This document shows, piece by piece, positions 11,820 to 15,997 of a stretch of DNA of 48,450 nucleotides (position 1 is its first letter; the number at the start of each line of letters is the position of its first letter). Under the pieces are notes generated by a model. It had not been told where the DNA came from. It was given only the letters and a program-made list of their open reading frames with translations, and searched no databases. The position numbers and the translations under genes were made by a program. This stretch comes from Fonticula-like sp. SCN 57-25 (taxonomy: Eukaryota), in NCBI GenBank assembly GCA_001724245.1, contig MEDX01000679.1:1-48450 (forward strand). Reading direction: 5' to 3'.

Positions 11820-12413
11820 CAGAGGTCTAAAGGCTTCCAAAGCAGCAGCAATGGGTAGGCAGAGGCAGCAGAGCAAAACAAAAAAAATGTGCGCCGCGCG
11901 CAGATTACGTCCTCCGATCAGATCGACAGACAACCGGGAGACGGTCGACTGTGGGCAGATCAAGGGGACGAGGAGAGCCGCCTGTGTCCGTCGGCTACCC
12001 TTGAGACAGAAAGCAAGATAGAGAGGGTTTTCGAGCGAGCCTGGAGGGAAAAGAAAGGATAAAGTTGTAGGTCGCCCTGATTATGAGGCGCTTTACCGCG
12101 GGCAAGCACTCGGTCACTAAGGAACCCACGCAGGCGAACGCTCCTCGAAACGTTAACTGCGTTCCCTGGAACGGCCTCCTGATTGGCTGAGGCCGTGGAT
12201 GGCGAGCTTCTTTCGCATTATTGGCGGATGATTTGCGCAACTTGGACGCCATTGGCTGGCCGACCACCCCTATAAAGCTTCGCCTAGGGTTCCCCACATT
12301 CTGGGGACAACAAAGGGTCCAGATGGATCGCGATTCACACGGATCGGGATCGAAAGTGACGTCGTTTGTGTTTGGCCGCGAGTCTGCCCTTGACCCTTGT
12401 TTGACACAGAAGC

Positions 12414-14173
12414 ATGCGGGGGTTGACAGTGCTGGCGCTGGTGGCGGTGGCGGTGGCCGCCGCCGCGGCGTCTGCTGTCAAGAACGACAATGCAGACCCG
12501 AGAATGATGCGTTGGACAAACGCCGAGATTGACGCCAAGCGCGCGGAGAATTTCGAGAGGGTGATGAGCGGGCTGGTGCACCAAGAACGGGTTTCGGTTG
12601 GCGTGCCAACGATTCGGTCGCGCGCTGAAGTGTCCGGCGAGGTGACGCTCCGCCTGTCCGCGTACGGCAGCGAGTTCAAGATTGACCTGCACCGCAACGA
12701 CTACCTGTTGTCGGCGGGCTGGGAGATTGACGGCGAAAAGTATGCCGTCTCGCCCGAGGAGAACTGCTTTTATATCGGCACGGCCACGGAGGTATCGTCG
12801 AGCGACGACGCGGCCCGCAGCGGCATTGCGGCGTTCAGCTTTTGCCACGAGCGTGTTGAGGGTACTTGGACGGCGGGCGGTGATACCTACGAGTTAATCT
12901 CGCACGAGCAAAACATGCGCAAGCGTGACCCCTCTTTGCCGACTCACATTGTGTACCGCATGTCGGACCTCGATGAGGAGATCGCGCGCGCGTGCGTCCC
13001 TCACGCGGCGTCCGCGCTTGCCAAGTCGTACGCGGCGCGCTCGTCGGACGACCTCGCCGATCTTTCCGGTCTGTCCGCAAAGGGCGTCGAGGCGCGCAAC
13101 ACCGATCGGTACATCCTGATGCACCTGTACGGCGACGCTGCCTTTACGCTCCGCTGGGGCACGTCTGTCGGCCTTCAGCGCCTCTACATGATTGCCAACG
13201 GCGCCGCGGCCATCTACGAGAACGGCAACACCGGCACGACTGTGTTCAACCCAAAGCTTCACTTTGCCAGCGTCAAGGTCGCGATGTGGACGCTCAACCC
13301 GTTCACCGCCTCCAAGGACGCCGACGTCTACATCGACAACCTTGCCTGGTGGTTCTCCACGCAGCCCGACGTCACCCAGGTCGCCGTGCACATCATCACG
13401 GGCCTCGACCTGCACGTGGACGGCGAGTACGCCGTCACCGGCTACGCGCCCATCGCCTCGACCTGCACGCTCGGCGTACGACCCGCTCTCTTTTTTTTGT
13501 GCAATACTGACGTGTTTTCGCAGTACATTGGCCTCGCCGAGGACTCGCCGTATTCGCTCGCCTTCACGTCAGCGACGCTGGCGCACGAGGTCGGCCACAA
13601 CCTGAACGCCATCCACGACAGCGCGCCCGGCGCGGCCAACTGCGCTGCCAGCGGCTTTGTCATGGCAGCTATCTCGTACCAGAGGGAGACGCTCGAGCAG
13701 TGGTCGTCGTGCAGCATCTCTAGGATGAACGCCTACATGACGTCGACCAACGTGCGATCCGCGGTACCTTACGCGCGCCGATGCTAACACAGACACTGTA
13801 GGCCTTTTGCATGATGGAGCCGGCTGGCGGGTTCACGCCGCCGACCGTCATGAGCGGCAACTGCCTCGGCCGCCCCACGCTCCCGCCGGGCGTCACCGAG
13901 AACGCGTACTGCGAGATGGACGGCTTGATTCTTCTCGTACGCCCGATAAGCCACTTTTTTTGTTGCTTATACTTTTTTTCTCAGTGCCCGCTCGGCCGCT
14001 GGGGCGTCTGCCCGCCGGACTTTATGTGCACCGTGCTGACCAACACCACCGCGGCGTGCCAGAATGCCGCCGGCGACATCGCCGAGCCGACCCTTGTCGG
14101 CGCCGCGTCAAGGGTCGCGGGTGTCGCGCTTGCTATGATTGCCGCGCTCGTCTCTGTTGCACTGCATAGTTAG
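12414..14173 (+). CDS. Secreted/anchored metzincin metalloprotease, reprolysin (M12B, ADAM-like) with prodomain; 3 introns
   Basis: Signal peptide; propeptide with ENCFYIG..AAFSFC and HIVYR; zinc motif HEVGHNLNAIHD; Met-turn FVMA; WSSCS; Cys-rich tail; hydrophobic C-terminus. Confidence 0.85.
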
Positions 14174-14370: not shown

Positions 14371-15997
14371 CTACTGGTGTCCGTCGTCGGCGACAGCTGC
14401 GTAGCTCTGCGTAACGACGCCGAGGTGCAGGATGCGGTCGCCCGACGAGCAGACCGGGTTGACGCTCTTTCCGACGACGATGCCGCTCGAGGGCGCCTCA
14501 TACTCGTCGACGACGTCGCCAAAGATGTTGTGGATGCGTGCAACGATCTCGCCCTCCTTGACCCAGCTGTTGATCTCGGGCACGACGGTGAGGATGCCGC
14601 CAGCGCGGGTAAACATCCAGAACGAGCGCGTGCACACGACGGGCTCAAAGTCGGCCTGGGCAAACTCGCGCGGGACCATGTTGAGCGAGCACATGATGTT
14701 TTCGACGCCGAGGAGCGCAAAGTTGATGAAGCGCTTGTGGAAGCGCTGCGGGTCGCCGACCTCGACCGTGATGGCGTGGATGCCGCGGTCGAGCGCTGCG
14801 CTGCGCAGCGACCCGTCGGGCCCGGTGTTGTGCACAATGATCTGCGGGTTCTGCAGGATGGCCATGCGCGCCGTGATCGGGTTGATCATGTTGGCGCGTA
14901 CGTAGAGCGAGTTGATGCGCCCGACCGAGGCGGTGTGCAGGTCAATGAGGTAGTTAAAGTGGCGGATGATGCGGTTGATGAGCTGGAAGGCAAACTGCTG
15001 AGAGCCAGAGCCCGACGCCTTGCCGGGCATCAGACGGTTCAGGTCAGCGCCGTCCTGGTAGCCGCGCTGCTGACGCAGAAAACCGGGCGGGTTCGCCACG
15101 GGCACAGCGACAACAATGCCGGCCAGCTCGCTCACGTCCACCTCGCGGAAAAGGCGGTGGATCAGCGGGATGCCGTTAAGCTCGTTGCCGTGAACCGCAG
15201 CGGTGATGCCGAGCACGGGGCCCTTGCGCACGCCCTTGGCAATCAAAACGGGCACGCGGATCGCCTGCGAAAGACCGTCCTGCGCAATAAAGATCCACTG
15301 GCGCGTTACAGTGCCGGGCGCAATATTGTCCAGCAGCAAGGCGTCAAGTGTCGGGAGCTCGGGCATCAGCGACATGCGCGCAGTTTCAGACACAAGATTG
15401 GACGTGGACGACGCCTCGCGGTCAAGCTCTTGAACGGGCGCAAAATTGACAAGCTCCTTGCGCGTCCACACAAGGATCTCGCGCGGCATCTGCGAGTTGC
15501 ACACAAAGCTCGCCTCCTTGATCTGAGGCAGGATCTCGCTGACAAACCCAAGCCACGGGGCGCGCTTGTCGCACTTTTTGATAATCTTCATAAAGCCGTG
15601 CTCATTCAGAGCGCCATAGTCCAGGAGACGCTCCATCTCGTCGCTCAGCGCGGACAGAGCAAGATTGACCTCGGGGCTCCCTTCATTGTCGTGGCTGCGG
15701 ATCTGGCAAGATCAACACGTCGGGTGAGCGGCTGCGTTATCGCATCCAAAAGCGTACCATCTTGATGATCTCTTCCCTGCGCTTGCGCGCGTCATCGAGC
15801 TTGCCTGAGAAAAAGGCGTCCACCTGCTTGAGCTCGCTGAGGATGGCGTTGCGCAGCTTGTCGGCGGCCTCTGGCACAGGCTTGTTGCCGCACTCTTCGA
15901 GCAGCGTGGCGAGCTGCCGCTTGAGGCCGCGGTAGTCCAGGTACCCATCCTGGTACACAAGCTGGACGCGCAGGCCGAGCTGCTTGCCAAATTTCAT
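14371..15997 (-). CDS. SPX domain fused to succinylglutamate desuccinylase/aspartoacylase (M14-like) domain, ~523 aa; intron 15703-15757
   Basis: SPX: MKFGKQL, YLDYRGLK, ELKQVDAFF, LNEHGFMKIIKKCDK. Enzyme: AAVHGNELNG, DLNRLMPG, IDLHTAS, TVEVG, plus a C-terminal barrel-sandwich-hybrid-like segment. Confidence 0.88.

Follow-up and report, generated by a model that had tools for sequence, protein, structure and literature searches.

An SPX domain fused to an M14 zinc amidohydrolase in Fonticula-like sp. SCN 57-25, and the unnamed ATP-grasp ligase that travels with its enzyme clade

The window analysed here, a stretch of 48,450 nt (contig MEDX01000679.1), contains a gene in which an SPX domain is followed by a zinc amidohydrolase of the M14 (AstE/AspA-like) type. 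Both domains are of known kinds, and the interest lies in the unnamed pathway behind their fusion; the main point is that an unnamed ATP-grasp ligase accompanies the enzyme clade and is also encoded in the genome under study (G000). As judged from sequence, the protein is best read as a phosphate-status-regulated amidohydrolase, a function already suggested in a preliminary description of this DNA. We give roughly even chances to a more specific proposal, namely that in many microbial eukaryotes the protein is the catabolic half of a two-enzyme system, in which hydrolysis of the ligase's X–Glu/Asp product is gated by inositol pyrophosphates.

The gene occupies two exons on the minus strand, with a spliced frame of 523 aa and one stop (Table 1). 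The preliminary description had reported one gene with a single in-frame intron. There is one GT..AG intron and the frame is kept across it, but its length is not a multiple of three, and it lies within the SPX domain rather than at the domain junction. Two in-frame GT-AG pairs of 30-120 nt occur within 15650-15800; they use a common donor, and the 55-nt pair has a pyrimidine-rich acceptor. Since the SPX lysine cluster and the whole enzyme share exon 2, the fusion is independent of the splice prediction. A gene-prediction chimera is excluded by this same arrangement, by two metagenome loci (L051 and L117) that have SPX and enzyme in one genomic frame, and by complete ORFs in transcriptome collections. 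The SPX–hydrolase gene is single-copy in G000. That its enzyme part is free of introns, as previously described, is correct; this is weak evidence of transfer, however, since GC3 is alike along the gene (0.86 for the enzyme, against 0.86 and 0.77 for the SPX portions) and the partner ligase has three introns. Convergent with the SPX gene is a gene on the plus strand (12405-14173) for a secreted M12B/reprolysin-like zinc protease with an M12B propeptide, and further flanking frames look SNM1-like and malate-dehydrogenase-like. None of the flanking genes in the window suggested a functional link.

Table 1. Features of the SPX–hydrolase gene (positions in the window)
Feature	Position	Strand	Remarks
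Exon 1	15758..15997	-	80 aa, starts MKFGK; SPX residues 1-80, including K2, Y22, and K26 of the inositol-phosphate patch
Intron	15703..15757	-	55 nt, GT..AG, phase 0, inside SPX; predicted
Exon 2	14371..15702	-	443 aa + stop; SPX remainder, linker, entire enzyme, and tail in a single open frame
SPX C-terminal half, ~residues 81-166	15445..15702	-	Lysine cluster K119/K122/K123/K126 at 15565-15588
Linker, ~residues 167-195	15358..15444	-	Disordered in the model of homologue P0006
M14 zinc amidohydrolase domain	14668..15357	-	HGNE 15181-15192, H336 14935-14937, R380 14803-14805, E394 14761-14763
C-terminal all-beta domain, as in DoeB/CphZ	14413..14649	-	Contains K492 and R503
C-terminal tail ending D-G-H-x	14374..14412	-	From alignment

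The SPX motifs listed in the preliminary description (MKFGK, YxxLK, and the lysine cluster) are all retained. Alignment to XPR1 showed all seven patch residues (K2, Y22, K26, K119, K122, K123, and K126) to be present, and the same seven are kept in 72-76 of 78 full-length homologues. Once spliced, SPX matched profile positions 1-157 as a single domain with 82 bits; unspliced, its halves scored 18.9 and 19.4 bits, both below the Pfam cut-off of 27.8. A family profile built from 36 homologues, with the protein under study excluded, gave matches of 1e-21 to 1e-16 to the SPX structures of XPR1, Vtc4, and plants (XPR1 SPX, 3e-21), and Pfam SPX was above cut-off in 9 of 10 homologues scanned, Fonticula's model being the one miss. 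The structural model of a Linderina homologue (P0006; pLDDT 88.6, pTM 0.63) was helical over residues 3-171, with a linker (173-189) of pLDDT under 50, and this monomer model gave no confident packing or contact of SPX on the enzyme. We infer that the SPX domain probably binds inositol phosphates. Inositol-pyrophosphate kinases are encoded in G000, where two PPIP5K-type matches and IPK genes were found. According to the accessible portions of two papers, inositol pyrophosphates rise with phosphate, and SPX may either activate or inhibit (PMC7381174, PMC10511240).

Only three SPX genes were found in G000, all of them enzyme fusions. The second (contig C687, L030:2409-5070, minus strand) has SPX followed in line by a stretch resembling RING and by a pyrophosphatase of family II (DHH/DHHA2); the third (contig C87, L031:4122-5881, minus strand) carries SPX, then ACT and phosphoserine phosphatase SerB domains, and is a second unusual SPX-enzyme fusion.

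The enzyme part matched PF24827 (AstE_AspA_cat) with 109.5 bits (2e-31). The amidohydrolase is intact, as the preliminary description had it: the zinc triad (H251, E254, and H336) and the catalytic residues (R293, N302-R303, and E394) are all present, and H251, E254, H336, R293, E394, and N302 are invariant across all 85 rows of the enzyme alignment. In the available parts of PMC9974463 and PMC10998430, the catalytic sets given for CphZ and ASPA, respectively, correspond to these invariant residues. Its earlier assignment to the AstE/AspA type is right at the level of the superfamily, but by curated cut-offs the enzyme is neither AstE proper (TIGR03242; 19.8 vs. 305.65 bits) nor aspartoacylase (NF002601; 26.5 vs. 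180 bits). DoeB/EutE was likewise rejected (TIGR02994; 61.9 vs. 402.7 bits), its pocket Asp being replaced by Arg, as was CphZ/AotO, with 17% identity (>30% expected) and specificity residues D181 and D222/E223 that are not matched (A338 and L379/R380 by offset). Structural matches to the P0006 model ranked DoeB, then CphZ, then AstE, and the match to DoeB (6TWM) covered the carboxypeptidase fold and the C-terminal beta domain (E 7e-26).

The arginine in question, R380, stands at the start of the helix following the third zinc ligand and aligns with the Asp of the DoeB substrate pocket. It is invariant in all 85 rows, including six outgroup paralogues, four of which adjoin RimK-type glutamate ligases. 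Since DoeB has aspartate in place of this invariant arginine, the substrate would be expected to end in Glu or Asp; the leaving group is thus predicted to be Glu or Asp, or a phosphorylated residue, and the acyl half would not be beta-Asp. R342, N344, and R349 are common to the hydrolase clade and the RimK-side paralogues, while K492 and R503 are conserved among the ligase-linked members but not among the RimK-linked ones. The D-G-H-x end of the protein occurs in 46 of 50 eukaryote-type rows and 0 of 29 bacterial rows, and for this reason the tail appears to have arrived together with SPX.

Six basic residues (R342, R349, R380, K492, R503, and H506) are conserved around the predicted site, as would suit a phosphorus store, in which the product would contain a phosphorylated residue (e.g., X-phosphoserine), the basic pocket would bind its phosphate, and SPX would hold back release in phosphate-replete cells. 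The two further SPX genes detected in G000 also end in phosphate-releasing enzymes, and no VTC match was obtained in G000 although the control was positive. However, the assembly is fragmented (749 contigs), so that the absence of VTC carries little weight; R342, R349, and R380 occur also in paralogues adjoining RimK, whose substrate is glutamate; and no kinase or phosphatase recurs in the bacterial loci. We regard such a store as quite improbable.

Homologues of the enzyme were sought with exon 2 as the query, which gave 2162 matching proteins among 8000 scored, and the best 120 of the 2162 were examined. Leaving aside the protein's own entry, SPX was found in 100 of 119; the remaining 19 comprised nine bacterial-type stand-alone enzymes, nine eukaryotic-tailed and apparently truncated proteins, and one partial chytrid model. 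Among the matches listed, carriers of the fusion were early fungi, Pneumocystis, Fonticula, Amoebozoa, Rhizaria, and a stramenopile, the named ones being Fonticula, chytrids, Zoopagomycota, Mortierellaceae, Geosiphon, Saitoella, Pneumocystis, Plasmodiophora, Spongospora, Balamuthia, Acanthamoeba, and Mucochytrium. Database labels call these proteins 'SPX domain-containing' or hypothetical. Rarity of the fusion is ruled out by the 100 of 119 carriers among the matches listed. As to its novelty, which had been suspected, no description of an SPX + AstE/AspA-type fusion was found in the literature within reach (most subscription journals and supplements lay outside it, and an SPX architecture table there could list the fusion), but the architecture itself is widespread. 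Feature matches for the fusion in the ESM Atlas were all below 0.9. One ESM Atlas cluster of 72 Mucoromycota proteins (representative, 730 aa) joins the hydrolase to a HutD domain (97% of members) and shows no SPX family; HutD is possibly another sensor in Mucorales, an order absent among the SPX–hydrolase matches listed (best 120 of 2162).

A tree of the enzyme domain was made from 85 rows (57 listed matches, 27 from loci, and the protein under study); unnamed rows were called eukaryotic from SPX, the tail, or a first tree, which makes the labelling partly circular. The 50 eukaryote-type rows formed one clade (100/97), the protein under study was sister to Fonticula (100/98), and the fungi made up a clade of their own (100/99). 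Although the eukaryotic clade is nested within bacterial rows, the branch to the outgroup is very long (7.6 changes per column), so that transfer may have run in either direction. By these comparisons, the SPX–hydrolase architecture is widespread, old, and of single origin. The preliminary description had supposed a possibly horizontally acquired enzyme: a bacterial source fits the tree, its root resting on that very long branch, whereas a recent transfer into G000 is rejected on the single eukaryotic clade and the alike GC3 across the gene.

Bacterial genome loci around the hydrolase homologue contained a ligase gene in 12 of 19 cases. This gene (~480 aa) lies one or two genes upstream of the hydrolase and is 54-79% identical to the first found; in both of the two unlinked loci that were checked, the ligase was elsewhere in the genome. 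In a set of 301 Bacteroidota genomes that included the query's own, four had the ligase and five had a close-clade hydrolase (over 330 bits; the next match had 150). All four ligase genomes had the two genes adjacent, within about 1 kb, and one genome (G299) had the hydrolase and no ligase match. Another 91 Bacteroidota genomes had weaker hydrolase paralogues only; twelve paralogue loci were retrieved and six were placed in the tree as the outgroup. In metagenomes, 40 of 80 loci (the best 80 of 433) contained the ligase; where at least 3 kb upstream and 1.5 kb downstream were available, it was present in 23 of 34 and no linked ligase was seen in 11 of 34. Since several metagenome loci are near-copies, these counts overstate independence. 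A second bacterial ligase, a GshB-like ATP-grasp protein, was found in 10 of 19 genome loci and 13 of 34 long-flank metagenome loci. Setting aside the enzyme, the two ligases, and the frames opposite to these, every ORF family was confined to at most 6 of 75 metagenome loci. Two side observations concern individual neighbourhoods: a divergent bacterial member without a ligase (L019:4137-4889) directly follows a polyphosphate kinase 2 gene, a single case, and a SET-domain gene lies near the hydrolase in L007, with a similar-looking small gene in metagenome loci L066, L067, L091, and L092.

Scanning of 42 of the 81 neighbour ORFs gave no Pfam match for the bacterial ligases, and no PDB sequence match was found. 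By its model (pTM 0.90), the ligase has a circularly permuted ATP-grasp fold. Its best structural match is 3K1T, a putative GshA (Z 17.6, rmsd 4.0, 331 aligned), yet the ligase has no Pfam match to GshA (PF08886); the next match was at Z 14.0, with ArgX, LysX, YgiC, and GspS at Z 13-14 and RimK and TTLL11 within Z 11-14. We take the ligase motifs G-x-D and D-x-R to be RimK/GshB-like.

ArgX/LysX, RimK, and TTLL11 being among these matches, the ligase might, in the manner of RimK or TTL, glutamylate a protein from which the SPX–hydrolase, as a phosphate-gated deglutamylase, would remove the tag. The acidic-substrate pocket fits such a cycle. So does the neighbourhood of the sister hydrolases, since four of the six outgroup paralogues adjoin a RimK-type gene and three of these also adjoin RimB-like genes; RimK, in the accessible part of PMC11957791, tags RpsF and makes poly-alpha-glutamate. 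However, the closest counterparts of the permuted topology are small-molecule ligases (3K1T and the glutathione and glutathionylspermidine synthetases), and no target gene is evident, given that no other ORF family exceeds 6 of 75 loci. A protein-tag cycle seems to us unlikely, if worth keeping in view.

The same fold match, to a putative GshA, together with the GshB-like second ligase, might instead point to the making and breaking of a gamma-glutamyl-cysteine-like or glutamyl-polyamine compound. Three loci have ornithine/arginine decarboxylase genes nearby and one has a deoxyhypusine synthase gene, and no canonical GCS or glutathione synthase was found in G000, where the controls were silent too. 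Established chemistry speaks against it, in that the M14 site requires a free alpha-carboxylate, which polyamines lack; moreover, R380 disfavours a basic leaving group, and no decarboxylase- or deoxyhypusine-type gene recurs in the metagenome loci. There is very little likelihood, in our judgement, of a thiol or polyamine conjugate.

In G000, the ligase is encoded by an intact gene of four exons (C2:6356-8169; 502 aa), on another contig than the hydrolase, and is exon by exon 45-57% identical to the bacterial query. Among the best 120 of 4403 ligase matches, conservation is 64-80% over Mucorales, Mortierellaceae, Glomeromycota, chytrids, Rozella, and Pneumocystis; the ligase is also found in Fonticula, Naegleria, Reticulomyxa, Cyanidium, Trichinella, Trichuris, Rotaria (a bdelloid rotifer), and sciarid flies. 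By hand count, at least 21 of the 43 named eukaryotic hydrolase genera are present in these lists, and 22 of 43 are not among the matches listed, including all nine genera of what we take to be the kickxellid group. The GshB-like second ligase was not found in G000 with one query, and because of this the eukaryotic product may differ from the bacterial one. Neither six long matches nor 27 scanned representatives showed the ligase joined to SPX or to the hydrolase. A quick ligase tree placed the G000 copy as sister to the fungal clade and Fonticula's copy elsewhere, with bacterial rows among eukaryotic ones; the nesting of eukaryotes in bacteria seen for the hydrolase is not mirrored there.

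Several ligase models are unusual in themselves. P0125, and its tree neighbour P0249, have a ~480-aa insertion exactly within the catalytic E-x-N motif, with no Pfam match; in P0125 it opens with Cys and closes with Asn and is presumably an intein. The sciarid-fly ligases P0194 and P0247 group with Rhizopus (SH-aLRT 100), which suggests a transfer from Mucorales or contamination. Some chytrid ligases show tandem duplication, with two domains in one Entophlyctis model (P0123) and adjacent locus tags in Physocladia (P0207 and P0226), and the long match P0128 looks like a patchwork contaminant model.

That the two genes are unlinked in G000, that 22 of 43 hydrolase genera lack the ligase among the best 120 of 4403 matches, and that the ligase occurs in Naegleria, Trichinella, Trichuris, Rotaria, Cyanidium, and sciarid flies would be expected if the ligase were a fellow traveller and the eukaryotic protein served generally as an N-acyl-Asp/Glu deacylase or acidic exopeptidase. 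However, on the intron-bearing contig L052, an SPX–hydrolase gene (start 2829, plus strand) and a ligase gene (minus strand, matches 2032 to 53) stand head-to-head, within ~0.8 kb of each other. This is the one ligase among five SPX-bearing metagenome loci, the other four contigs being under 5 kb. P0122 (SPX–hydrolase) and P0263 (ligase), each on two contigs (the longest 16,690 bases), are perhaps a second eukaryotic gene pair, and the clade-specific site residues are the same in bacteria and eukaryotes. An enzyme uncoupled from the ligase is, to our mind, improbable.

We therefore return to the gated two-enzyme system, which may be pictured as follows. At the expense of ATP, the circularly permuted ATP-grasp ligase would couple X, a donor of acyl or gamma-glutamyl type, with the amino group of Glu or Asp; the product would be a small amide or a short oligomer of acidic character. 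This amide would be cut in carboxypeptidase fashion by the M14 domain: H251, E254, and H336 would hold the zinc and E394 would activate the water, while N302-R303 would bind the free alpha-carboxylate and R380 the acidic side chain. SPX would read inositol pyrophosphate, and hence phosphate status, and gate the hydrolase, for which the eukaryote-only DGH tail would be the likeliest relay, as a latch or pseudo-substrate. If the hydrolase were active when phosphate is plentiful, the product would accumulate under phosphate limitation and be mobilised once growth resumes. Activation in phosphate-replete cells is narrowly favoured over the opposite direction by analogy with cyanophycin, which accumulates under phosphate limitation. 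Substrate class, gating, the role of the tail, and the direction of control are all put forward here as predictions from the sequence.

To our knowledge, the SPX proteins characterised so far move, store, release, or signal phosphate, and the SPX–hydrolase would link amide metabolism to phosphate status. It also suggests that early fungi, Pneumocystis, Glomeromycota, amoebae, and rhizarians share a conserved metabolite that has no name yet. Since the two enzymes are soluble and the SPX-free bacterial pair serves as a natural control, product and regulation are directly testable. More speculatively, an early eukaryote may have kept the ligase-hydrolase pair for making an acidic peptide or polyanion (polyglutamate-like or phosphorylated) and subjected the breakdown of this compound to control by inositol pyrophosphates, which we hold possible though rather doubtful. 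If true, eukaryotic phosphate signalling would have a second, non-polyphosphate reserve branch that ties amino-acid storage to phosphorus supply and has persisted in lineages ranging from amoebae and rhizarians to Pneumocystis and mycorrhizal fungi. Such a branch would have been missed because the usual model organisms, as far as we know, seem to lack the pair.

Among known systems, the INPHORS SPX fusions (Vtc2-4 SPX-TTM, XPR1/Syg1, and Pho87/90/91) have in common with the SPX–hydrolase an N-terminal SPX with the full lysine patch, and Gde1 is an SPX-ankyrin-GDPD protein; the effector of the SPX–hydrolase differs in being an amide hydrolase without obvious phosphate chemistry. All 10 yeast SPX proteins act in phosphate homeostasis, according to the accessible text of PMC7381174, in which the words 'deacylase' and 'peptidase' do not occur. 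The closest solved fold is that of the N-acetyl-diaminobutyrate deacetylase DoeB/EutE (6TWM; TM 0.83 over target, rmsd 2.8, 21% identity, with the P0006 model), which shares the zinc triad and the beta domain. The hydrolase differs from it in the Arg for the pocket Asp and in having SPX and the DGH tail, and no ectoine genes were among the scanned neighbours. AstE and human aspartoacylase belong to the same superfamily and are weaker fold matches; ASPA uses R168 for aspartate selectivity, as far as the available part of PMC10998430 goes, and R380 is predicted to be a like arginine. The M14 paralogues of RimB-RimK operons, which form the nearest outgroup, have R342, N344, R349, and R380 in common with the hydrolase and likewise lie next to an ATP-grasp gene, but their identity is ~30%, they sit on a long separate branch, and their partner is RimK rather than the permuted ligase. 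On the ligase side, 3K1T and the glutathionylspermidine synthetase/amidase GspS are likewise circularly permuted ATP-grasp proteins (Z 17.6 and 13.1), with only 11% and 9% identity, and GspS, like the system proposed here, pairs a ligase with a hydrolase. The best functional analogy is the cyanophycin dipeptide hydrolase CphZ/AotO (8EIN), an M14 enzyme with the same catalytic set that, in the accessible portion of PMC9974463, cleaves what an ATP-dependent ligase makes for nitrogen storage; judged solely by offset from the third zinc ligand, its D181, which holds the beta-aspartyl half, would correspond to A338 of the hydrolase, and its acidic arginine-binding pocket (D222/E223) to the L379/R380 region.
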